Source: Haloferax volcanii DS2 (GTDB lineage: Archaea > Halobacteriota > Halobacteria > Halobacteriales > Haloferacaceae). Taken from it: a stretch of 32,000 nt of DNA. The notes beneath the pieces were generated by a model. It had not been told where the DNA came from. It made no database searches and worked only from the letters and a program-made list of their open reading frames with translations. Numbering within the stretch: the stretch's first letter is position 1; each line of letters begins with the position of its first letter. The translations under genes were made by a program, and so were the position numbers. The stretch spans positions 210,001 through 242,000 of the forward strand of contig NC_013967.1 in assembly GCF_000025685.1 (NCBI RefSeq), read 5' to 3'. Positions 21,332-32,000 of this stretch are shown here, piece by piece.

Positions 21332-21537
21332 CTCAGTCGAGACGTTTCCCGCTCGTTGCAAAAGTCTTCCCGCCGCCGTCTCGTGGTTCTCGTTCCTGCG
21401 GCCCTCTCCCGAACACGACATGCGGCACTCACGTATCAGGTCAGAGTCAAAATGGGACCGCCCGGGCTGTCCTTACCTATCAGTAGCCGACTCTCCACTA
21501 CCTCTATCGGTCGAACTGAGATATTCCTACTCATGAC

Positions 21538-22569
21538 TCATTCAATCCGGAGTTTGTCCAGGTGAGGACGGCGGCGCAGCTCCATCCGTTCGCGCTGGGA
21601 CGCTTTGTCGTAATGCTGTTCAATAACCTCTTGAGACGCATTCACGCGCTCCGCGGTCACCTCCGCAGGGAACCCGCGATCTCTGTGCCACGTAATCGAC
21701 CCCGTTCGAATGTGGTGTGGTGATCGAGAAGACGGACACTTGCTACCCTGAGTGTATGACCCCGCGAACTCGCAGGAATCTTTCTCGTACTCGTGCGGGC
21801 ACGGACCAGCAACACACGGCTGCGTCGCCTGATACATCCACCCCCGAAAGCCGTTCTTCGAGATACGAGTTCCGTGGTGCGTCACGAACAGCGGAGAGCG
21901 ACCAAAGTCGTCGTGGCCATCCGGCCGGAACTTCTCGATGTAGGTGTTCAGCGACTCGACGACCTCCGGCAAGAGCGAAACCGTACGTTCGCCATTCATC
22001 TGATTCTTCAGCGGCGTCTCGGACTCCGGCCGGTGGACGAACTCGACGTACTGCTCATCGGGGTAGTAGTCGCGCAGATCGAGCCCGCGAAGGGCACCGA
22101 GACGAGCGCCCGTGTGCCACGCGAGTTCGAGAACCGCGTGGAACCGAGTCCCGCGGACGCTACTGTGTGACCGGTAGTACCGAAGCAATCGAAGCGCGTC
22201 GTCGGGAACCAACATCGTGTCTCGCGACCGCTCCGACATCGGGACACTCGGTACGTGGACCTTCTTCGAGAGACCGTCCTCGACCGCCTCGATGCGCTCG
22301 AGGTACTCGATGAACCCGAGCAGCGTCTCCATCTCGCCGTGGAGAGTGGGTGAGGCGATACCCTGACCAGCGCGAAAGGCCTCGAACTGCTCGAACGTCC
22401 ATCCGTTCAGGTCAGAGACGCGCTCGATATTCTGGTCCTCGCACCATTCGACCCAGAGTTTCAGACGGTATCTGTAGGTCTTGATGCTCGACTCCGAGAG
22501 TTCCGTCCCTCGACGGTCAAGATAGCGGCGAACGGCCTCGCGGGGCTTGAGTTCTGAGGGTCCGTTCAT
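21538..22569 (-). CDS. Tyrosine recombinase / phage-type integrase
   Basis: 343 aa. It has an N-terminal SAM-like core-binding domain. Catalytic residues are in order: R (HTGARLGALRGL), HxxR (SPHHIRTGS) and Y (IEQHY). A Cys-rich insert (CVAGPCPHEYEKDSCEFAGSYTQGSKC) is also present. Confidence 0.9.
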   Translation of the reverse strand: MNGPSELKPREAVRRYLDRRGTELSESSIKTYRYRLKLWVEWCEDQNIERVSDLNGWTFEQFEAFRAGQGIASPTLHGEMETLLGFIEYLERIEAVEDGLSKKVHVPSVPMSERSRDTMLVPDDALRLLRYYRSHSSVRGTRFHAVLELAWHTGARLGALRGLDLRDYYPDEQYVEFVHRPESETPLKNQMNGERTVSLLPEVVESLNTYIEKFRPDGHDDFGRSPLFVTHHGTRISKNGFRGWMYQATQPCVAGPCPHEYEKDSCEFAGSYTQGSKCPSSRSPHHIRTGSITWHRDRGFPAEVTAERVNASQEVIEQHYDKASQRERMELRRRPHLDKLRIE

Positions 22570-22742
22570 GGCTCACCCCACCCGTCGAAGACAGACATGG
22601 CGCATCGCCAATGCAGGTAGTAGTCGTCGACATCGTTCCGGTCGGCGGTGAACCTGTACTCCGCTTCGACAGAGACGTAGTCTTCAGACGGGTCGACTTC
22701 CATCCGACAGACCGCACACGTCGGGTAGTACGTCATCTGCAT
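22566..22742 (-). CDS. Small zinc-finger protein (58 aa; CxxC...HxxC)
   Basis: MQMTYYPTCAVCRMEV...YYLHWRCAMSVF. Its TGA overlaps the integrase ATG (ATGA at 22566-22569). An alternative ATG at 22736 gives an ATGA overlap with the upstream gene. Confidence 0.55.
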   Translation of the reverse strand: MQMTYYPTCAVCRMEVDPSEDYVSVEAEYRFTADRNDVDDYYLHWRCAMSVFDGWGEP

Positions 22743-23029
22743 CCTCCGTCGTGCTCGGGGCAGACCGGAACCATTCGCGGATAATACTCGTCTTCGGTCG
22801 AGAGATCGAAGCCGTCGCACTCCGTCGGCTCCAGAACTCGCCCGCAGAAGTGACACTCAACCCACTCGGTCAGCGGATCGATGAACGCAGGACGAGTAGA
22901 ATCGACTTGCCCGCCGTCGGTCACGAGCTGGCGTTCGGCGCGACGACACTCAGAACAATGACCGTCGTCGTCGAGACCGCGGAGTCTGTCACACGCGCGG
23001 CAGGGACGCCTGCACGCGGGGTGACTCAT
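22733..23029 (-). CDS. Cys-rich multi-zinc-finger protein (98 aa)
   Basis: MSHPACRRPCRACDRL...HCSECRR...CHFCGRV...CPEHDGGC. Acidic, halophile-like composition. Its ATG overlaps the upstream TGA (ATGA at 23026-23029). Confidence 0.6.
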   Translation of the reverse strand: MSHPACRRPCRACDRLRGLDDDGHCSECRRAERQLVTDGGQVDSTRPAFIDPLTEWVECHFCGRVLEPTECDGFDLSTEDEYYPRMVPVCPEHDGGCR

Positions 23030-23202
23030 CTGTCGACCTCCAGCGCCGCGCACTTCCGGCAGGCGCTCAGGCGAGTCTCGGCATCGACGCCGACCGCCGG
23101 GCGGAGGAGACAGACCTCACACGTGGACTCGTCGCCCTTATCAAACTGTGCTGCATCGGTCGCTATGCGGGTGGTAACACCCGTGGTTTTGGCTTCCGTC
23201 AT
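23026..23202 (-). CDS. Small zinc-ribbon protein (58 aa; CxxC...CxxC)
   Basis: MTEAKTTGVTTRIATDAAQFDKGDESTCEVCLLRPAVGVDAETRLSACRKCAALEVDR. This is the first gene of the ATGA-linked string that ends in the integrase. Confidence 0.55.
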   Translation of the reverse strand: MTEAKTTGVTTRIATDAAQFDKGDESTCEVCLLRPAVGVDAETRLSACRKCAALEVDR

Positions 23203-23314
23203 GGCTATTGACGGACCCTTCCTGAGAGCGGTGCTGGACCCACCGCGCTCAGGGCCTACAAAAATCATCTCCAGCCGACGGTGTCTCTCAGGGTTCCGTG
23301 AGTCTACCATAACA

Positions 23315-23340
23315 CTAACTGTGCATAAATGCACCGTTAG
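23315..23340. promoter_or_regulatory. 26-bp imperfect palindrome over a TATA-like core (candidate operator/promoter of the switch region)
   Basis: CTAACTGTGCAT-AA-ATGCACCGTTAG has 12-bp arms with one mismatch. The centre GCATAAATGC is TATA-like. It lies in the 212-bp divergent spacer between the integrase operon and the repressor-like genes, and the ATG at 23352 is about 27 nt downstream of its centre. Confidence 0.5.
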
Positions 23341-23414
23341 TTTGAGAACAGATGTTTGGATTGCTAAAGCACGATTCGTCGGCAATAGACCAAACCAGCG
23401 TATACGTACACGTA

Positions 23415-23702
23415 ATGAGAAAGTCTGCATCGTGGATGACGATATGGGACGACCGAATCCTCGAGTGGGCACGGGAACACGAGTCGGCGAGCGCCGCCGC
23501 GATGAAAGACACCGAATACTTCCAGGTATCTCGTTCGTCGCTCTCACGGCGGCTCTCGAAGCTCAACGAGAAAGGGCTACTCCAGCACCTCGGCAATGGT
23601 GTCTACGTCATCACGGCTACCGGCGAAAGCTATCTCGAAGGTGAACTCAGCGCTGAAGAACTGAACGGCGAGAATGGTGAAGAGGGCTCTGCGTCCGCGT
23701 GA
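23415..23702 (+). CDS. PhiH1-repressor-like winged-helix protein (paralog 1)
   Basis: MRKSASWMTIWDDRILEW...SRSSLSRRLSKLNEKGLLQHLGNGVYVITATGESYLEGEL shows the WM-x-x-WDDRILE N-terminal motif and the Y-x-IT-x-G-x-x-YLEG tail typical of haloarchaeal PhiH1-repressor-like proteins. The start could instead be the ATG at 23352, which would be leaderless from the palindromic TATA. Confidence 0.7.
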   Translation: MRKSASWMTIWDDRILEWAREHESASAAAMKDTEYFQVSRSSLSRRLSKLNEKGLLQHLGNGVYVITATGESYLEGELSAEELNGENGEEGSASA

Positions 23703-23713
23703 CTCACTCTGAG

Positions 23714-24040
23714 ATGCGGAAGTCAGGTGACTGGATGACGATCTGGGATGACCGGATTCTCGAGTATCTCCTCGAGCACGGCTGGGGGTCTCCGGAGACG
23801 ATCCATTGGGAAATCGGCCGCGAGACGACGCTTCACCAGATTCGAGAACGATGTCGCGTGCTGTGTCACGCTGGGCTGGCGTCGCCGTTCATCGACGAGC
23901 GGAGTGCAGACATGTTCGAGATCACGATCTGGGGGCAGTTGTATCTCGAGGGGAAGGTGAATGCGGGGTTGATTCGACCGCTTCCGAAGCCAAGGCCGCC
24001 AGACAAAGTACGACCCAGATATTGGTCACAGATTGCGTGA
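23714..24040 (+). CDS. PhiH1-repressor-like winged-helix protein (paralog 2)
   Basis: MRKSGDWMTIWDDRILEY...FEITIWGQLYLEGKV has the same N-terminal motif as paralog 1. The alternative GTG at 23699 overlaps the upstream stop (GTGA). Confidence 0.7.
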   Translation: MRKSGDWMTIWDDRILEYLLEHGWGSPETIHWEIGRETTLHQIRERCRVLCHAGLASPFIDERSADMFEITIWGQLYLEGKVNAGLIRPLPKPRPPDKVRPRYWSQIA

Positions 24041-24084: not shown

Positions 24085-24963
24085 ATGTCTGGAACAAAGT
24101 TCTACTTTGCTACCTTTGAGGTAGAGGGTAATTTCGGTTTTGATTACCCGGCGGATATGGAATACGATCGAAAGGTGCGTGAATCGTTGACTGATTTTGT
24201 TGAATTGGAGGGTGCTGTTGCCCAAGGAGACTCTGAAGAATGGTACTTTGGACGGCCTGAGTTCGATGCCAACATGATTTATGGGAAATTTGGAAAAGTG
24301 TATGCAGATGAACCATTAACCTACGATGATGAAATAGGTGACTTCGTGGAGGGTGATGAACCAAACAAAGAGGCAGACTACTCTCTATTTGCCATTGATC
24401 TAGAAAATAATCTCGTCATTTTCAGCTCAACCTATCGCGTTAGACACCGAAACTTCACCAAGTATCTCAAAAAAGGATATGACAGCTTTACAGGTGGTGA
24501 TGCCTCAATTCATTTAGAGCTTGTTAGAAATAAAGAGGGTGTTGAGACAGTAATTCAAAACTATCCTGTTCACAAAATCCATGCAGAATTAGTCCCATCT
24601 AACCCGTCTCCTGATGAAGAATGGGAAGAGTTAGACGAGAGCCTCAGAGAGATGCTAGCCGATAAACTAGGAATTACTGCTGAACAGTACAATGATGGTG
24701 GATTAGATTTCTCAGAGAGTTTTCTGTCACAAGTGGCCAGTATGTCACAGTCAAAATATGGTGAATCTTGGGAGATTACCTATAGTGACGATGACGGAGA
24801 ATTCAAGGTCATTTCATCGGATGACGATCCGGCCTCAAAGGTTATTGATGAAGAGCCGACCACTACTGGCGGTCTGAAAGCGCATATCGAAGGGATACTG
24901 AGTTACGGTCTCACGTTCTTAGACTCAGTACCTCACAAAGCATCCTCGGCTAGCTGTTTCTGA
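24085..24963 (+). CDS. Hypothetical acidic soluble protein (native length 280 aa; the present 292-aa form carries a 12-aa IS-encoded tail)
   Basis: Visibly AT-rich ORF with an ATG start and an AT-rich TATA-like stretch at 24044-24061. No TM segment or motif recognised. The last 12 codons (SVPHKASSASCF) are read from the left end of the IS. Removing the IS restores ...TTA GAC TAA. Confidence 0.65.
   Translation: MSGTKFYFATFEVEGNFGFDYPADMEYDRKVRESLTDFVELEGAVAQGDSEEWYFGRPEFDANMIYGKFGKVYADEPLTYDDEIGDFVEGDEPNKEADYSLFAIDLENNLVIFSSTYRVRHRNFTKYLKKGYDSFTGGDASIHLELVRNKEGVETVIQNYPVHKIHAELVPSNPSPDEEWEELDESLREMLADKLGITAEQYNDGGLDFSESFLSQVASMSQSKYGESWEITYSDDDGEFKVISSDDDPASKVIDEEPTTTGGLKAHIEGILSYGLTFLDSVPHKASSASCF
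24926..24941. repeat. IS left terminal inverted repeat
   Basis: CAGTACCTCACAAAGC, read directly. Confidence 0.8.
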
Positions 24964-25109
24964 AGCCTGAGTTCTGTGGCGGAGCGGTTGGACTGGCGGT
25001 TTCGACGAGAGAATTATGGACGGATCGGCGGAGAGCCGTCGCTGTCGGCGGCGGCTGCCGCCGACGCGACAGCGTCGCCACTCCCACCGTTGGCTAGCCC
25101 GGTCGGGAG

Positions 25110-26276
25110 TTACCGGTGGAACCGGTCGTCTGGTGGTCGGTTCGCGGGGACGGCCCGACGCACCGCGAGGGCCGTCCACGCTGCTCGACGGACCATATTG
25201 ATGAACTCCTTGAACGACCACTCCCAGAGGCGACGCCCCCCACGGCGGGGCGTCGCCACGTACTCCCAGTGCAAATACCGCCAGACGTTCTGTAACAGCA
25301 GGCTCACCACGACGTACAACAGCCGTACGACCGGATTTTGTGTCGAGGTCGTCGCGATACTTTGCTCGGAGAGTCGATAGCTTGCCTCGATACCGAAGCG
25401 TTTCGCGTAGTGGTATCGAGCGTCCCGTGGTGAGTCGATGAACGGCGCGTCAGCGGCGTAGCCGTGACGCGCCACGCCATGTTCGTCGTACCGTCCGTTC
25501 TGGTAGGTACAGTCGATGTAGACGGGAAACTCGACGGTCCAGCTGTGACCGTCGAGTTTCGCTGTCAGACTGTGCTGAATCACGCGACTCCACCCTTCTG
25601 AGAGTTCTCGCTTGATCGTCTGTCCCCAGCGGACGATCGGCATGACGTAGGCGTGGTTGTGCGCCTGAAGCAGCGTCAAACACTTGCTGTCGTAGAATTC
25701 GCGGTCAAGATAGACGGCCTTGACACCGAGGTCAAGGCCGTCGAGAATACCGAGGAACTCTGCGAGGACACTGCTGGCGGTGTCGCCGTCTTCGAGACGG
25801 CGCACCGCCAGCGTGTAGCGTTTGTTCTTCACGCGTGCGTACAGTGTCGCGTACGCGTGAAACGCGGTGGTTCCACGCTTCGCTTGTGAGTGATACAGGC
25901 CGTCTGTATCGTCTTCGTCGCCGTAGTAGGGCCGCAGGTGGAGGTCTGCGCAGACCTCCACCTGCTGGGGAAGGACGTTGAGAATGTCCTTCTGGAGGAG
26001 CGTGTTCCCGATTTGTTCGAGCGTCTCGAGGTCGAACTTGGTGCGGAGATGGTAGAGAACCGAGTTTTCGTGAGGTGCATCTTCGCTTCTCTTGCAGAGT
26101 GTAGAGACCGAGGTCCCGTCGGCGCAGGCGCCGACGAGGACCTCGTAGATGTCTTCAGCATCGAGTTCAGCGTTTTCAGCGAGTGAGAGAGCAACTTCCT
26201 CGTCAAGAGAGTTGACGAGGAAGTTAAGGAGCTGGTCCTCGTGGATTTCATCGTCTGTTTGCTGGTTGTTGGACAC
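25110..26276 (-). CDS. ISH3-family DDE transposase
   Basis: ...HEDQLLNFLVNSLDEEVALSLAENAELDAEDIYEVLVGACADGTSVSTLC...VYLDREFYD...YAKRFGIEASYRLSEQ contains the Y-x2-R-x3-E region. There is no ATG start. GTG at 26276 (MSNNQQ...) is preferred over TTG at 26300, which would lie only 8 nt inside the IR. Confidence 0.85.
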   Translation of the reverse strand: MSNNQQTDDEIHEDQLLNFLVNSLDEEVALSLAENAELDAEDIYEVLVGACADGTSVSTLCKRSEDAPHENSVLYHLRTKFDLETLEQIGNTLLQKDILNVLPQQVEVCADLHLRPYYGDEDDTDGLYHSQAKRGTTAFHAYATLYARVKNKRYTLAVRRLEDGDTASSVLAEFLGILDGLDLGVKAVYLDREFYDSKCLTLLQAHNHAYVMPIVRWGQTIKRELSEGWSRVIQHSLTAKLDGHSWTVEFPVYIDCTYQNGRYDEHGVARHGYAADAPFIDSPRDARYHYAKRFGIEASYRLSEQSIATTSTQNPVVRLLYVVVSLLLQNVWRYLHWEYVATPRRGGRRLWEWSFKEFINMVRRAAWTALAVRRAVPANRPPDDRFHR

Positions 26277-26307
26277 ATCTTCAGCAAGCAGACGTCTCAA
26301 CTAACCG

Positions 26308-26323
26308 GCTTTGTGATGTACTG
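26308..26323. repeat. IS right terminal inverted repeat
   Basis: GCTTTGTGATGTACTG, whose rc is CAGTACATCACAAAGC. There is one mismatch to the left IR. Confidence 0.8.
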
Positions 26324-26332
26324 AGACTAATT

Positions 26333-26932
26333 ATGGTCAACCGTGGTACCGTTCAGCGAATACGTAGTTTTGGTCCTATCCGGATTGTCACTTCATTTGA
26401 GGTTATCGGGGCAGCTCTACTTACAGCGATTGCTCGGTGTTCTTTTTCAGGTAGTTTTCAACCGGATGGGATGTCTAGTTTTGTAGCTGCAGCAACTGGT
26501 ATATCTTCATCCCTCATTGCAGTTGTCCTCACGGGAATCGCAATTCTAGTTTCCTTGTCTAGTGAACAGTTCCTATCCTTTCTACGGGAACAAGATATTT
26601 ATGATAGAATTATGTTCGTGTTTGAATATACCGTCGCACTCGCGATTATAACGTCATTATTGGGGTCAATACTGCAGACTGTAGAATATTCTGAGTACAT
26701 GTTTTGGATATTTGTATTCTTCTTCATCTATCTACTTCTAAGTACTATGCAAATCGTATCTACTATAATTGAGTATGGGGACAAGATTGGTGAGTTCAGC
26801 AAGGCTAATAATTTTGAACCAAATGAAGATCTGAAAAAAGATATGCAAGATCTGATTCAGGAGCATGGTAATTTCGACGAGGACGATAATCAGACACGGA
26901 ATCGTGGCGAGAACGAAAGTGAGAGTGAGTAA
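26333..26932 (+). CDS. Hypothetical four-TM membrane protein with an acidic C-terminal tail
   Basis: AT-rich ORF with an ATG start. Predicted helices: FEVIGAALLTAIARCSF, FVAAATGISSSLIAVVLTGIAILVSL, IMFVFEYTVALAIITSLLGSIL and YMFWIFVFFFIYLLLSTMQIVSTII. The tail, ...DEDDNQTRNRGENESESE, is charged. Confidence 0.65.
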   Translation: MVNRGTVQRIRSFGPIRIVTSFEVIGAALLTAIARCSFSGSFQPDGMSSFVAAATGISSSLIAVVLTGIAILVSLSSEQFLSFLREQDIYDRIMFVFEYTVALAIITSLLGSILQTVEYSEYMFWIFVFFFIYLLLSTMQIVSTIIEYGDKIGEFSKANNFEPNEDLKKDMQDLIQEHGNFDEDDNQTRNRGENESESE

Positions 26933-26933
26933 A

Positions 26934-27194
26934 TCACCTCCACTGACTCTCCAAACTCGTCCGATATCGCATCCCCAACACGGACGTATTGCAACAGTCC
27001 TTCACAGTCTGAGGCGGATACGCATCGCGAACTTCCTCGAGATTTTCGTAGCTCTCGATCAAGTGCGTGAGCGCCGCGTCGATCACATCACTTCGCGGCG
27101 GATCGTCCGACACATCTCGAGCCACGATCTCGCTTGCTTTGTCGAAGAGCAGCTGCCGTTCGTCGGTCAACTTCAGGCTGGTTCGTTTGGTCAT
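26934..27194 (-). CDS. Hypothetical protein, possible ribbon-helix-helix (CopG-like) N-terminus
   Basis: MTKRTSLKLTDERQLLFDKASEIV has the strand-helix pattern of RHH proteins. ATG start. The gene is convergent with the 4-TM gene, 1 nt apart. The assignment is tentative. Confidence 0.45.
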   Translation of the reverse strand: MTKRTSLKLTDERQLLFDKASEIVARDVSDDPPRSDVIDAALTHLIESYENLEEVRDAYPPQTVKDCCNTSVLGMRYRTSLESQWR

Positions 27195-27480
27195 TTATGA
27201 ATCACCGTATGCACCGGGGGTCGATTTGCGTGCATCTCGAGTGAACGAGCCTCGGTTCTTCTTATACTGGGGGTGACCCATGACCGCGACCGTGCCGGCC
27301 ACTTGGTCGAATCGGCCTGAATCTATGCACGGTACTCGCCGTCGACGGCGGTGAAGGTGCATACATCGAGGATGGCGTATACATTCACGCCTGACCCCAT
27401 GGGGGCGAGATTGAGAAGGGGTCTGCACGGGGCTACTCGCCGTCCGAACGCTTATCCTCTGAGACCGATTCGAATTCAGT

Positions 27481-27741
27481 ATGGCTAGTGCGACCCGTGA
27501 TGATAACGGCGAGGAGGGCGTCGAGTTCATCCACGAGGATGACGGCAGTATCACCGCCCGAGACATCGAGACGGGGATCGCATCCTTCGGCGAGACGAAG
27601 TCTGAGGCGCTTCGGATGCTCTCGGAGGCGCTTCTGCTGCACGAAGGGGGTGGCGAACCCGTCACGGACGAAGATCTCGAGGAGTTGGGACTCGATACTG
27701 ACGAGTTCGACGATCGAGAGCTTCCGGACTTCATGCAGTAA
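27481..27741 (+). CDS. hicB: HicB-family antitoxin
   Basis: IHEDDGSITARDIETGIASFGETKSEALRMLSEALLLH matches the HicB/UPF0150 N-terminal fold pattern. The tail is acidic, and the gene lies directly upstream of a HicA-like ORF. Confidence 0.75.
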   Translation: MASATRDDNGEEGVEFIHEDDGSITARDIETGIASFGETKSEALRMLSEALLLHEGGGEPVTDEDLEELGLDTDEFDDRELPDFMQ

Positions 27742-27742
27742 C

Positions 27743-27988
27743 GTGGCGCGAACGACCTTCTCCGGCCGGGAAGTCGTGAAGGCGTTAACCCGTCATGACT
27801 TCGAACCCGCTGGCCGAACCGGGAGCCACGTTCAGCTGCGGTACGAACATCCAGAGACTGACGAAGTCCGAACGGTAACCGTACCGATGAAGTCAGACAT
27901 CCCGACCGGAACGCTTCAGTCCATCGCCAAGCAGTCCGGCGCGAAGGATTTCCACTCGTGGTGCGAGTGGATCGAACAGACGCTGTAA
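27743..27988 (+). CDS. hicA: HicA-family mRNA interferase toxin
   Basis: The GTG at 27743 lies 1 nt after the hicB stop. ...GREVVKALTRHDFEPAGRTGSHVQLRY...TVPMKSDIPTGTLQSIAKQSG is the HicA/YcfA signature (GSH...VP.H/K...GTL..I.KQ.G). Confidence 0.75.
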   Translation: MARTTFSGREVVKALTRHDFEPAGRTGSHVQLRYEHPETDEVRTVTVPMKSDIPTGTLQSIAKQSGAKDFHSWCEWIEQTL

Positions 27989-27991
27989 CCG

Positions 27992-28198
27992 TCATCGGTG
28001 TGGAATCGATTCCGGGAGTTCTGCGATTCCGCCGTCCGTCACATTTCGAACCACGTACACGCCTTCGTCGAGACGCTGTACGTGCATCTGTTTCCCCTCC
28101 GGTGCTGTACCGTTCTCGAGAACACCATCCATCTCTAACTCATTTTTATCCAGCGCGATCAGCGGCGTCCCATCGTGATTTCGAAGTTTTCTGAACAT
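27992..28198 (-). CDS. Hypothetical small protein (68 aa), possibly AbrB/SpoVT-like
   Basis: ATG at 28198 inside track ORF 27992..28273, which opens with TTG. MFRKLRNHDGTPLIALDKNELEMDGVL...VQRLDEGVYVVR loosely resembles a swapped-hairpin barrel. Weak call. Confidence 0.35.
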   Translation of the reverse strand: MFRKLRNHDGTPLIALDKNELEMDGVLENGTAPEGKQMHVQRLDEGVYVVRNVTDGGIAELPESIPHR

Positions 28199-28328
28199 CG
28201 CTACCGCGGTCGGCCACCCGCCTGTACTTAATCCTTCGGACGGGGTGAGAATCTCAATAGGACCACGCACCAAATCCTCCGGAATTCCTGAATGTTATTG
28301 CACAACGGGTAGCCGCCGTCTTCGTATC

Positions 28329-28736
28329 ATGTCCGTAATGGAGTTCGACCCGGAGGACGCCGCGGCGCTCGTCGCGACGTTCATCGGGACGACGGCAATG
28401 GCAGGAATCGCATCGTGGTCGCTGTTCGACGTGACGCTCTCAGACGTGGCGTTCCAACTCGCGGGCAACGACGTGACGCTGGCGACGCTCCTCACGTTGG
28501 GCGCGCTCGGCGTCACCATCCTCACGAACGACAACGCCGAGTTATCCACCCTGCACCAGCAGGCGAAGGACCTCGACAACTACTACTACTACAGCATCGT
28601 CGCCTCGGTCGGCCTGTTGGTCGGCTGGGTCTTCTTCGGTGACGTGAGTTCGTTCGTGCAGTCGCAGGACCTCTGGGGCGTCGGCTACGTCGCTGTGAGT
28701 CTCACCGCGCAGATGGCGATCGGGTGGATGCTATGA
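28329..28736 (+). CDS. Membrane protein (135 aa, about 4 TM), first gene of the envelope-protein operon
   Basis: ATG at 28329. Predicted helices: AALVATFIGTTAMAGIASW, LATLLTLGALGVTIL, YYSIVASVGLLVGWVFF and GVGYVAVSLTAQMAIGW. A TATA-like gttatt lies at 28294-28299. Confidence 0.6.
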   Translation: MSVMEFDPEDAAALVATFIGTTAMAGIASWSLFDVTLSDVAFQLAGNDVTLATLLTLGALGVTILTNDNAELSTLHQQAKDLDNYYYYSIVASVGLLVGWVFFGDVSSFVQSQDLWGVGYVAVSLTAQMAIGWML

Positions 28737-28948
28737 ACCTCGATCTCGACGACCTCGATCTCGAAACGGTTGCAATCATCGGTGCGGGCGTCGGTTCGCT
28801 CGATGCCGGACTGTCGGCCGCGACTGACATCACGCTCCTGTCTGATCTCCTCGGTGGAAGCCTCGAAACCGGACTTATCGCTGTCGGCGCGGCTGGTGGT
28901 GTCGTGATCGCGGACAAGCTCGGACTCGTTGAGGTGTTCGAGTCGTGA
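28733..28948 (+). CDS. Small Gly/Ala-rich protein (71 aa)
   Basis: ATGA overlap with the upstream gene (28733-28736). Sequence: MNLDLDDLDLETVAIIGAGVGSLDAGL...GLIAVGAAGGVVIADKL. Confidence 0.45.
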   Translation: MNLDLDDLDLETVAIIGAGVGSLDAGLSAATDITLLSDLLGGSLETGLIAVGAAGGVVIADKLGLVEVFES

Positions 28949-29475
28949 GGCGCGGCCGCGCAACCCTCGCGCTCGTCGGTCTTTTGGTCGCAGCTGTTGC
29001 CGCAGTCGCCTTCGTCGGTCTCGGTGCGGCGACCGTGACGACCGACTCGGCCAACTTCACGAGCGTCGGCAACGACTCGCTCGCGAACCAGACCATCGAC
29101 GTGACGAACGACACGCGGAGTCTCTACGTTGAGTTGGACAACGACACCGCGACTGCCTCCGAACCCGTCGAAGTCGCGGTCTTCGAAGTCGATGCTGACG
29201 GTAACGAGACCGAAGTCGACCGCGTGCAGATCTCTGCAGCGGACGGGACAACCGAACTCTACGAGTTCGATGCCCTCGACCCGACGAACGTCTCGACCTA
29301 CCGCGTCGAAGTGCTCGGGACTGCGTCGGCGATTGACTCGTCTGCCCTCGACGTGGGGACGGTCGCGGCAGTCTCGTCCGGTGGTGGCTTCCTCGGCGGC
29401 TCGTCCGGTGGTATCGGAATCGGTGCGATTGCAGTCGTCGGAATCGGCGGCTATCTCGCGCTCAAGGAGGACTGA
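28945..29475 (+). CDS. Secreted, C-terminally anchored glycoprotein candidate (176 aa)
   Basis: GTGA overlap with the upstream gene. It has an N-terminal signal/anchor (MRRGRATLALVGLLVAAVAAVAFVG). I counted 7 N-x-S/T sequons (NFT, NDS, NQT, NDT, NDT, NET, NVS). A Gly-rich stretch, GGSSGGIGIG, precedes the C-terminal TM. Confidence 0.65.
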   Translation: MRRGRATLALVGLLVAAVAAVAFVGLGAATVTTDSANFTSVGNDSLANQTIDVTNDTRSLYVELDNDTATASEPVEVAVFEVDADGNETEVDRVQISAADGTTELYEFDALDPTNVSTYRVEVLGTASAIDSSALDVGTVAAVSSGGGFLGGSSGGIGIGAIAVVGIGGYLALKED

Positions 29476-29481
29476 CCCCTG

Positions 29482-31095
29482 ATGCTCCGACTTGCATCGA
29501 CCTACGCCGCCGTTGGTCTCTCGGTGGCCGCCGCCTACCTCGCCGGGGTCCACGGCGACCACCATGCCGCCGCCATCGTCGCCGCGGTCGCTGTCCTCTT
29601 CGTCGCGCTTCGACTCTCGTTCGGTGATGTGCTTCGGCTCGGCGCGCTCGATGCCGACCGGGTCAAGGTCAAGGCTCGACAACTCGGCACGCTCGCCGCC
29701 GTCAGCCTCGTCGTGACAACCGTGGCCACGAGTGGCGTTGTTCCTGGTGCGTCGCCGGTTGGTGACGCTTCTGCGGAGTGGGTCGACTGCTCGCTGTCCG
29801 ACCCGCTACTCGGCGCGGCGTTCAACACCTTGACCGGCACAGACACCGGCTGTCGCTGGGAGTCCGGCGAGCAAATCGACTATGAGAACGTCTCGAAGAC
29901 TGACGCGTACGCCTCCGCCCTCGGGATTGCTGACGCCTCCGAATCGTACACGACGACGACGAGTAACTTCCTCGAAGACACGCGGTCGGTCGCGTGGTCG
30001 AAGGCGAAAATCACCATCGTTAACGAGCTCAACAACGGCTCGACGGTCAGTCAGGCGAAAGTCGCGGCCAATCAGACAGTCGCGGAGTACTACACCGGCG
30101 TCCAGCGGAACGTGATTGCTGATTGGAACGCGAAGACGTACACACTCGGGTACCTCCACACGGAAAGCGGACTTGCCCTCACTCCAGACGGTTTCTCGCA
30201 CATCACAGAGTGGGACAACAAGACGTACACGCTTTCGGATGGGTCGACGCAGACCCTGCGAGCGATGGACTACTCAACGAATGGAGACTACCACGTGGCC
30301 CCTGAGACGACTATCATGCCACGCTCGACGGCCGACCCCGGTATCACGACTATGGGGTCCATCCAAGCCGAAGACCCGTCGGACGGATCTACGACTCACG
30401 TTCTTAGTGCGGTGGCCTACGCCGAGATTCTCGACAACACCTACAATCAGTCAAATCAGATTCAGGCGAACGTCGACGAGTACGCTGATGATGCGTACGC
30501 GCAGTACCAAGCGGGCGACATCAACACGAGCGACCTGCTCGACCCGACAACGATTGCCTCGCAAGCGGCGACTGATTACAACTCGACGGGGTACTACTCG
30601 TTTGCCGCTGTGCAACTCGCGTCGCTCGGTGCGTCGGGCGACCTCAACGCCTCGCACACTATCGAGACGGGCGACGGTACGACGCTCAACGGGACGCTCT
30701 ACTACACAGGCGACGACGCGCCTGCCGGTGGTTGGGTGACTAATGAGACGTACACCGTTTCGAACTTTAGCGGGACGTTCTACGTGGCCGCCCAACAGCA
30801 GGACGGAAACGGGAGTATCGTCGACCTCTCGACCTACGAGAATTTCACAATCGTCGACGCGGTCAACACCCGGACAGGTGAGTCGCTGAACGCGACGCAA
30901 CCCGAGACGTACATCTACGACTCGACGAACGCAAGCGCCCTCGCGGACGAAATTGATCGGCTTCGTGATCTTCGCGCAGAGTACGAGCAGGCCGGCGGTT
31001 CCGGTGGCGGCGGTGGAATCGGAATCGGAACTGAGGACCGCCTTATCATCGCCGGTGCGATCGTTGCGCTCATCCTCGTCGCTACCCGGAACTGA
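29482..31095 (+). CDS. Large membrane-anchored surface glycoprotein (537 aa), candidate spike/fusogen-like protein
   Basis: The ATG is preceded by the SD-like AAGGAGGA at 29464-29471. Hydrophobic N-terminal segments are followed by a ~430-aa ectodomain with about 15 N-x-S/T sequons and only two Cys (CSLSD...GCRW). It ends in GGSGGGGGIGIG plus a C-terminal TM (LIIAGAIVALILVATRN). An alternative in-frame GTG at 29629 would give a classical signal peptide. Confidence 0.7.
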   Translation: MLRLASTYAAVGLSVAAAYLAGVHGDHHAAAIVAAVAVLFVALRLSFGDVLRLGALDADRVKVKARQLGTLAAVSLVVTTVATSGVVPGASPVGDASAEWVDCSLSDPLLGAAFNTLTGTDTGCRWESGEQIDYENVSKTDAYASALGIADASESYTTTTSNFLEDTRSVAWSKAKITIVNELNNGSTVSQAKVAANQTVAEYYTGVQRNVIADWNAKTYTLGYLHTESGLALTPDGFSHITEWDNKTYTLSDGSTQTLRAMDYSTNGDYHVAPETTIMPRSTADPGITTMGSIQAEDPSDGSTTHVLSAVAYAEILDNTYNQSNQIQANVDEYADDAYAQYQAGDINTSDLLDPTTIASQAATDYNSTGYYSFAAVQLASLGASGDLNASHTIETGDGTTLNGTLYYTGDDAPAGGWVTNETYTVSNFSGTFYVAAQQQDGNGSIVDLSTYENFTIVDAVNTRTGESLNATQPETYIYDSTNASALADEIDRLRDLRAEYEQAGGSGGGGGIGIGTEDRLIIAGAIVALILVATRN

Positions 31096-31128
31096 CCGTT
31101 TCGACCACTCTACCAACCTTTCACACTC

Positions 31129-31704
31129 ATGCGCAGAACCATCATCACGCTCGTGATCCTCATCGCAGTCGTATCGCCCGCGCTCGTCGGCACGGTCGCC
31201 GCGCAAGAATCGACGAACTCCACGACGACCACCGCGCCGTCGACCACGCCCGAAGCAACTCAGACTATCGAACTCTCTCCGACGACGCGAATCAAATCGT
31301 GGTCGTTCTCGAATGGGACGTTCTCGCTCGTCGTCGAGGCTGACATCCCGACACGGATCGCCATCACCGACGCTGGTGAACTCTCTCGGATTCTTTCCGA
31401 GGGAGACGGTGCAGCTGCCGGGAAAGCCCGCGTCCGGCGCATGACCTTGACCCCCGGAACGACCGTCGTCAAGTTCCGCGCCGAATCGGTCGGTGACGCG
31501 TCGGCAATCACCGTCTCCTCGTCGAACGCAGACGGTATCGTTGCTATCCGCTCCGACGCGATCAAGACTGGAAACCCGCCCGTCGAGTACGGAACGGTCC
31601 AGACGCTTCTCGCGTCGACGGCGGTCGCCGCGGCCGGTGGGACCTTCCTGTGGGTTCGCAAGAAGCGCAACGAGAAGCAGCTGGAGGTTGAGCGGGAATG
31701 GTGA
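31129..31704 (+). CDS. Secreted, C-terminally anchored protein (191 aa)
   Basis: Sec-type signal (MRRTIITLVILIAVVSPALVGTVAAQE), a Thr-rich linker ([17 protein letters not shown]), and a C-terminal TM followed by a basic stop-transfer (LLASTAVAAAGGTFLWVRKKRNEK). Confidence 0.65.
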   Translation: MRRTIITLVILIAVVSPALVGTVAAQESTNSTTTTAPSTTPEATQTIELSPTTRIKSWSFSNGTFSLVVEADIPTRIAITDAGELSRILSEGDGAAAGKARVRRMTLTPGTTVVKFRAESVGDASAITVSSSNADGIVAIRSDAIKTGNPPVEYGTVQTLLASTAVAAAGGTFLWVRKKRNEKQLEVEREW

Positions 31705-32000
31705 ACGACTGGGTGAAGCTCGGCGCTGTGGGCGCTGTTTTCGCCTACTTCGGCGGGTACCAATTCCCCGAGTGGGCACCACTCGCCGCGTCCGGTCTCG
31801 TCATCGCTGGAATCGGTGCGCTGTTCGCGACGGGGAAGATCAACGATCTCCTCCCCGACCCACCGCGGGTGCGTCTCGTGCAGGTGAACGCGAACAGCGA
31901 CGACCCGCTGGCGTGCTGGTCTCTGTCTCCGGACAAGTTCGCAGAGATGCAGGTCGAGTGGGGCCCGCTGTATCCACACGAGCAGGCTCACGGCGATGTG
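31698..32000 (+). CDS. Membrane protein, N-terminal fragment (continues beyond the window)
   Basis: ATG at 31698 overlaps the upstream stop (ATGGTGA). Manual translation gives MVNDWVKLGAVGAVFAYFGGYQFPEWAPLAASGLVIAGIGALFATGKINDLLPDPPRVRLVQVN... with two TM helices. The frame stays open to the window end. Confidence 0.55.
   Translation, partial: MVNDWVKLGAVGAVFAYFGGYQFPEWAPLAASGLVIAGIGALFATGKINDLLPDPPRVRLVQVNANSDDPLACWSLSPDKFAEMQVEWGPLYPHEQAHGDV

Follow-up and report, generated by a model that had tools for sequence, protein, structure and literature searches.

The envelope gene block of the temperate betapleolipovirus Halfvol1 in Haloferax volcanii DS2 and its sequon-rich pre-spike protein

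Pleolipovirus virions are membrane vesicles without a capsid, which enter the cell by fusion and leave it by budding without lysis (PMC12642806). Haloferax volcanii DS2 carries such a virus in its chromosome: Halfvol1, a provirus of 20,573 bp inserted at tRNA-Pro-TGG with 14-nt direct repeats on both sides (PMC12091111), whose placing in the genus Betapleolipovirus is taken here from the literature (PMC7911831, PMC12091111). The stretch of DNA analysed here, referred to as the window, comprises 32,000 nt of the DS2 chromosome (NC_013967.1, positions 210,001 to 242,000), and positions are given in its own numbering unless a contig is named. Its last part, 28329-32000, is almost certainly the envelope or structural gene block of Halfvol1. 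An initial annotation, made from the letters of the sequence, had compared this block with the VP3/VP4 envelope module of pleolipoviruses by architecture only, with a cell-surface remodelling module as the alternative. The virus reading is correct but not new, the element being already published as Halfvol1.

Several lines of published evidence describe Halfvol1 as an element that leaves the chromosome. A virus stock has yielded it as a circular contig of 20,573 bp (PMC7911831), and it excises, doing so more efficiently at 30 °C. Its circular DNA, at high read coverage, and its VP4 protein occur in the culture supernatant, and caesium chloride (CsCl) fractions contained circular Halfvol1 DNA, HVO_0271 and HVO_0272 detected by mass spectrometry, and particles of ~80 nm (PMC12091111).

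Identity and gene content of the block

The six products of the block are H. volcanii DS2 HVO_0268 to HVO_0273 by exact protein look-ups, with exact sequence identity between HVO_0270 and ADE03358.1, HVO_0271 and ADE03515.1, and HVO_0272 and ADE04739.1. The published Halfvol1 (HVO_0268-HVO_0274; CP001956 nt 231453-252025) is the same element as that in the window, its proteins being identical without difference, and the homologue identities published for it (71, 80, 50, 77/33, 77/52 and 54/52%) are close to the values measured here (PMC12091111). Its neighbours likewise agree with the window: a gene resembling spermidine synthase, the gene of a XerC/D integrase and a pair of repressor-like genes. 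Apart from the identity of the DS2 genes, the assignment is based on homology, synteny, the repeat of the left attachment site (attL) and a nucleoside triphosphatase (NTPase) gene downstream. The features located in the window, and relatives of one of them elsewhere, are collected in Table 1.

Table 1. Features of the Halfvol1 provirus located in the window and genes of the HVO_0270 family on other contigs
Feature	Position	Strand	Basis and remarks
attL core, left repeat ATGGGACCGCCCGG	21452..21465	none	14-nt exact match to the tRNA-Pro(tgg) 3' end that closes the related L011 provirus on its right
Tyrosine recombinase (XerC/D-like integrase)	21538..22569	-	Pfam Phage_integrase, E 6e-6, 26.5 bits, just under the cut-off of 27.1
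Two adjacent winged-helix phiH-repressor-like genes	23352-23702, 23699-24040	+	First gene: HVO_A0261_N, HTH_Crp_2 and MarR_2 below cut-off
ISH3-family insertion sequence (transposase 25110-26300)	24919..26330	-	NCBIfam transpos_ISH3, E 5e-116, 387 bits against a cut-off of 225
Internal membrane protein HVO_0268 (HRPV-1 VP3 type = HGPV-1 VP2)	28329..28736	+	Homology
Small Gly/Ala-rich virion protein HVO_0269	28733..28948	+	Homology
HVO_0270, sequon-rich C-terminally anchored beta-sandwich protein, pre-spike family	28945..29475	+	Exact match to ADE03358.1; family profile; AlphaFold2 model
VP4-type spike/membrane-fusion protein precursor HVO_0271	29482..31095	+	Homology; C-terminal anchor at ~residues 513-535
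Conserved pleolipovirus core protein HVO_0272 (signal peptide, Thr-rich linker, C-terminal hydrophobic tail)	31129..31704	+	Homology
Conserved core protein HVO_0273, first 101 codons (full length 264 aa)	31698..32000, running off the window end	+	Homology
HVO_0270 family genes elsewhere	L018 (HRPV-10) 696-1226; L012 4647-5126; L008 10001-10531		

Of the 20.6 kb of the element, the window holds ~10.5 kb at the left end, and the remainder runs for ~10 kb beyond the window end. The start of the provirus is placed at ~21452 because the 14-nt ATGGGACCGCCCGG found there is identical to the 3' end of the tRNA-Pro bordering a provirus of L011. This metagenomic Haloferax contig shares the chromosomal flank of the window, and its provirus, a related one, occupies that tRNA-Pro locus too. 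Related proviruses terminate at tRNA-Pro, and an ARAGORN scan of the window gave no tRNA, the tRNA-Pro of this element lying at its far end, outside the window. A tyrosine integrase stands beside an attachment site that stems from the 3' end of a tRNA, as in temperate SNJ2-like pleolipoviruses, the enzyme itself being placed only as XerC/D-like, with a match to the NCBIfam XerC/XerD models (E 2e-15) that lies far below their equivalog cut-offs. This integrase and two phiH-repressor-like genes bear out the integrase-bearing setting with repressor-like genes that had been proposed for the block. The GC content of the window is ~70% over its first 20 kb and 43-65% from ~21 kb on, a drop that fits a foreign element. 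The left ends of the window element and of L011 differ, L011 5396-5538, when set against window 21394-23515, being without a counterpart of the region that encodes the integrase and CxxC proteins.

The six open reading frames (ORFs), all on the + strand, meet at ATGA (28733), GTGA (28945) and ATGGTGA (31698) junctions, with a 6-nt gap before 29482 and a 33-nt gap before 31129; coordinates and junctions were confirmed from the sequence. Genes in this arrangement would be co-transcribed and translationally coupled, and the overlapping stop/start junctions would lead to co-translation of their products in fixed proportions. The richness in N-x-S/T sequons ascribed to two of the products is exact in number and non-random: the 176-aa protein has 7 (1.2 expected) and the 537-aa protein 15 (5.2 expected), numbers that none of 2000 shuffles reached for either protein. 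The membrane architecture held up in part. Hydrophobic N- and C-terminal segments were located where the initial annotation had placed them, whereas of the four transmembrane segments it gave to the first ORF a Kyte-Doolittle scan found three clear ones, and of the two in the fragment of the sixth ORF one was clear and one weak. For homologues of the first ORF (HVO_0268, annotated in DS2 as 132 aa with its start at the second Met), four transmembrane helices are predicted in the literature.

All six products match virus families in PHROGs (E 1e-37 to 1e-148), and five of them align in order with HGPV-1 VP2, VP3, VP4, ORF5 and ORF6 and with HFPV-1 genes 2-6. HVO_0268 has 71% identity to HGPV-1 VP2 over 135/135 aa and 47% to HFPV-1 gp2 (phrog_3232, E 2e-42; PF26064 VP3), and HVO_0269 has 80% identity to HFPV-1 gp3 and 34% to HGPV-1 VP3 (phrog_7558, E 2e-37). 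Behind the spike gene, HVO_0272 (191 aa) shares 77% with HFPV-1 gp5 and 33% with HGPV-1 ORF5 (phrog_1938, E 3e-48; PF26259 DUF8063), and the fragment of HVO_0273 shares 75% with HFPV-1 gp6 and 51% with HGPV-1 ORF6, values that become 77% and 52% for the full-length protein (PF26446 and PF26447). The assignments to PF26064, PF26255, PF26259, PF26446 and PF26447 come from precomputed annotations only, our own Pfam-A search having given nothing but sub-threshold noise with any of the six proteins.

The full-length HVO_0273 was obtained from contig L003, which was found by exact look-up of the 191-aa protein, matches window 26176-32000 with 100% identity and extends 1.9 kb beyond it. On L003 the sixth ORF is completed at 264 aa, and the next gene encodes a protein of 383 aa that has a Walker A motif (GPPGAGKT), is 54% identical to HGPV-1 ORF7 and matches AAA_25 with 27.5 bits (cut-off 27), so the VP8-like P-loop NTPase that was to be sought past 32000 is present directly downstream. 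Measured against the family-level conserved five-gene cluster in the ICTV profile (PMC12642806), and with the NTPase on L003 counted, the full Pleolipoviridae core is, on sequence grounds, present. It consists of a gene for an internal membrane protein of the HRPV-1 gene 3 type, a VP4-type spike gene with signal peptide and C-terminal anchor, two conserved ORFs after the spike gene, whose correspondence to HRPV-1 ORF6/ORF7 is taken from the literature and not from alignment, and the putative NTPase of the HRPV-1 VP8 type on L003, outside the window. The likeness to a pleolipovirus envelope module, first drawn from architecture, is therefore exceeded by true sequence homology and by a gene order conserved with betapleolipoviruses. 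That no capsid-type gene is visible in the block had been remarked before and is expected, since pleolipoviruses have no capsid (PMC12642806).

Together with the NTPase, the block products would build a capsid-less virion, a host-derived membrane vesicle around circular viral DNA. In such a particle HVO_0268 would be a multi-pass internal membrane protein and HVO_0271 the spike, processed at its signal peptide and anchored at its C-terminus, which would mediate host binding and membrane fusion. HVO_0269, HVO_0272 and HVO_0273 would be small conserved proteins of the particle: HFPV-1 virions contain the products of ORF3-ORF7 as determined by mass spectrometry, among them the homologues of these three proteins and of the NTPase. 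HVO_0270 would be an additional sequon-rich, membrane-anchored beta-sandwich protein made alongside the spike. A reading from raw sequence alone has in this case recovered the envelope module of a capsid-less archaeal virus, and homology ties that module to Halfvol1 of a model archaeon.

The spike precursor and the HVO_0270 family

HVO_0271 has 50% identity to HGPV-1 VP4 and 49% to the HFPV-1 spike, and falls in PF26255 (Viral_env_HRPV). When searched by tblastn against GenBank phage and archaeal-virus records, the 537-aa protein found pleolipovirus spike genes only (23 records), and a profile of spike homologues matches the solved pleolipovirus spikes 6QGI, 6J7V and 6QGL in the PDB (E 6e-73 to 8e-66). 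The mature protein is predicted to start at E99 (~window 29776), with the cut after ...ASPVGDASA, by alignment to the mat_peptide annotation of HGPV-1. The spike of HRPV-1 is N-glycosylated.

Homology to other spikes starts only at ~residue 66 of the 537-aa ORF. Ahead of the canonical signal peptide the ORF has a 60-codon N-terminal extension (29482-29661) with two extra hydrophobic segments, which L011 shares and L008 shares more loosely, and which the spikes of HGPV-1 and HFPV-1 lack. Codons that differ from L011 are synonymous in 84 cases and non-synonymous in 49 in the mature spike region, which indicates purifying selection, and synonymous in 9 and non-synonymous in 17 in the extension, which is at best weakly constrained. 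An internal GTG start at V61 or V63 was considered and rejected, as these codons are GTC; the start candidates that remain are the ATG at 29482, with GGAGGA 10 nt upstream, and a GTG at codon 50.

The gene directly ahead of the spike gene is the only point that goes beyond the literature found, in which no function is assigned to its family. Its product HVO_0270 falls in phrog_13810 (E 8e-82), and neither HGPV-1 nor HFPV-1 has a homologue of it; when HVO_0270 and two divergent members of the family were searched by tblastn, the phage collection gave no match. A word-indexed search with HVO_0270 reached four Haloferax clusters only. By exhaustive profile search, however, the family comprises at least 119 clusters when grouped at 50% identity, with lengths of 150-195 aa in nearly all of them, and a family hidden Markov model (HMM) built locally from 109 members also matches HRPV-10 gp03 (E 3e-31), a protein of 176 aa annotated as 'hypothetical protein' that this search alone detected.

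Members of the family share a recurrent design. Among 109 members of 140-200 aa, a hydrophobic segment is present at the N-terminus in 107 and at the C-terminus in 108, a Gly-rich linker occurs in 103, and sequons average 6.7 per protein against 1.7 after shuffling, the most conserved positions corresponding to N55, N48 and N66 of HVO_0270. Some members (P0061, P0069) have the domain in two copies. In each of the nine contexts sampled (the window, L008, L009, L011, L012, L013, L014, L015 and HRPV-10), the family gene is the immediate upstream neighbour of a VP4-type spike gene. AlphaFold2 run with a deep alignment gives HVO_0270 a beta-sandwich ectodomain, with a pLDDT above 90 over residues ~31-145, and helices at both ends; Foldseek searches returned only generic matches to carbohydrate-binding modules or jelly-roll-like folds. 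A type IV pilin or archaellin identity was considered and is not supported, the only match, to Arch_flagellin (E 0.065, 14 bits), lying under the cut-off of 29.5 and the C-terminal transmembrane anchor being a feature absent from pilins.

Two major structural proteins are reported for the virions of HRPV-10, -11 and -12 (PMC7547991), and the family member of HRPV-10 is accordingly not a major virion component. HVO_0270 would most likely be a minor envelope protein or a factor associated with the spike or its assembly, the main alternative being that it may act in superinfection exclusion. More specifically, and tentatively, HVO_0270, gp03 and phrog_13810 at large could represent a glycoprotein, so far undescribed, that accompanies the spike in one sub-lineage of betapleolipoviruses. 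Made in a set ratio to VP4 and carrying a similar Gly-linker and transmembrane tail, it would chaperone or shield the spike or tune receptor use. Such a role would be comparable in its logic, though not by ancestry, to that of companion glycoproteins in enveloped viruses of eukaryotes. A possible role of HVO_0270 in the maturation of the spike, in host range or in superinfection exclusion can be put to experiment, as H. volcanii is genetically tractable and a provirus-free strain exists.

Accessory genes and the state of the provirus

The two phiH-repressor-like proteins near the integrase are known as HVO_0260 and HVO_0261 (PMC12091111). Beside the integrase, on the - strand at 22566-23053, are two overlapping CxxC-rich candidate ORFs of 96 aa and 106 aa; in integrative pleolipoviruses a coding sequence with CxxC motifs and one spanning attP are described as adjoining the integrase. 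The ISH3-family insertion sequence (IS) is delimited by 23-nt terminal inverted repeats (24919-24941 and 26308-26330) that are 91% complementary. On its left side the IS runs into the 3' end of ORF 24085-24963 and may thereby disrupt this gene. That ORF (292 aa, with a sub-threshold match to DUF4747) and ORF 26333-26932, which encodes a 199-aa protein with multiple transmembrane segments, flank the IS with a GC content of 43-45%, compared with ~60% in the rest of the provirus, and may be cargo from a different source. Their products have no PADLOC or NCBIfam match, and PADLOC found no defence system among the accessory genes of the provirus. Upstream of the structural block, at 27481-27988, an 86-aa DUF7387 protein precedes an 81-aa HicA-toxin-like protein (precomputed Pfam annotation of L003), and by this annotation the pair looks like a provirus-borne toxin-antitoxin pair.

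Four points weigh against taking the block as the structural genes of a temperate betapleolipovirus. Infectious Halfvol1 particles are undemonstrated and infection of a provirus-free strain failed (PMC12091111). Halfvol1 may be partly crippled by the ISH3 insertion and by a second IS reported in the literature, which is the route of pHV4 integration in laboratory strains. N-glycosylation of the block proteins is predicted from their sequons only. Finally, the signature ORFs of the genus (homologues of HRPV-3 ORF6/ORF9 and a long reverse ORF) fall outside the window: HGPV-1 ORF8-15 have no match in the window and the signature ORFs would lie beyond 32000. At the position expected for the genus signature, the related loci L008, L011 and L012 carry genes for DUF7845 (538-553 aa) and PDDEXK_16 proteins.

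Some of these observations suit a decaying or domesticated provirus, whose envelope proteins would mainly serve the host, for instance through superinfection exclusion of related pleolipoviruses or the modulation of extracellular vesicles, and which would no longer give infectious virions. Besides the ISH3 insertion, the literature records failed infection, low titres and phenotypes linked to the provirus (motility, CRISPR expression), HFPV-1 infection strongly represses HVO_0268-0271, lowering their expression 40 to 150-fold (PMC9436352), and the L011 element at the same locus is without a counterpart of the integrase region. This explanation nevertheless appears unlikely, given that the six ORFs and the NTPase gene are intact and tightly coupled, that the mature spike is under purifying selection, and that the element excises, with circular DNA in the supernatant and proteins in CsCl fractions. 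A vesicle-forming module of a plasmid, of the plasmid-vesicle or pHK2-like kind, is a far less probable origin. Pleolipoviruses and pHK2-type plasmids do share genes, pHK2 homologues are annotated in Halfgib1, and the particles look like membrane vesicles; however, the closest relatives HGPV-1, HFPV-1 and HRPV-10 are isolated plaque-forming viruses, the five-gene core is complete, and the distinction between virus and plasmid is largely semantic in the Pleolipoviridae. A host operon for remodelling of the cell surface or S-layer that merely lies beside an integrase would account for products that are all membrane-bound or secreted and sequon-rich and for the Pfam-A search without significant match, but it is effectively refuted, each gene having virus homologues in conserved order, the block being bounded by the att repeat and the integrase, and the related blocks examined sitting in small virus-like contigs or tRNA-Pro-flanked islands.

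Halfvol1 among described pleolipoviruses

As the envelope gene block of Halfvol1, the genes at the end of the window can be set beside those of several isolated viruses. HGPV-1 has the same order of genes, VP2, VP3, VP4, ORF5, ORF6 and ORF7 (the NTPase), with protein identities of 33-71%, and it keeps the context of spike cleavage (...ASA followed by E). It differs from the block in that no gene lies between VP3 and VP4, in having no integrase, and in its shorter spike precursor (486 aa compared with 537 aa in Halfvol1). HFPV-1, a virus infecting the same host species, is closer in genes 3, 5 and 6, which are 75-80% identical, with 49% for the spike; gp2, in contrast, is just 47% identical, and HFPV-1 has neither a homologue of HVO_0270 nor an integrase.

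In HRPV-10, on the other hand, gp01-gp04 resemble the head of the Halfvol1 block, encoding in turn VP2, a small protein, a 176-aa protein and the VP4 precursor. Here the sequences have diverged strongly: the spike is only ~24% identical, gp03 is missed by tblastn and gp02 is a different small protein. The VP5 spikes of HRPV-2 and HRPV-6 (PDB 6QGI and 6QGL) are alphapleolipovirus proteins; they belong by profile to the same family as HVO_0271 (E 6e-73 and 8e-66) and are the V-shaped fusion proteins that define their class (PMC12642806); by analogy with them, HVO_0271 would be a fusion protein as well.

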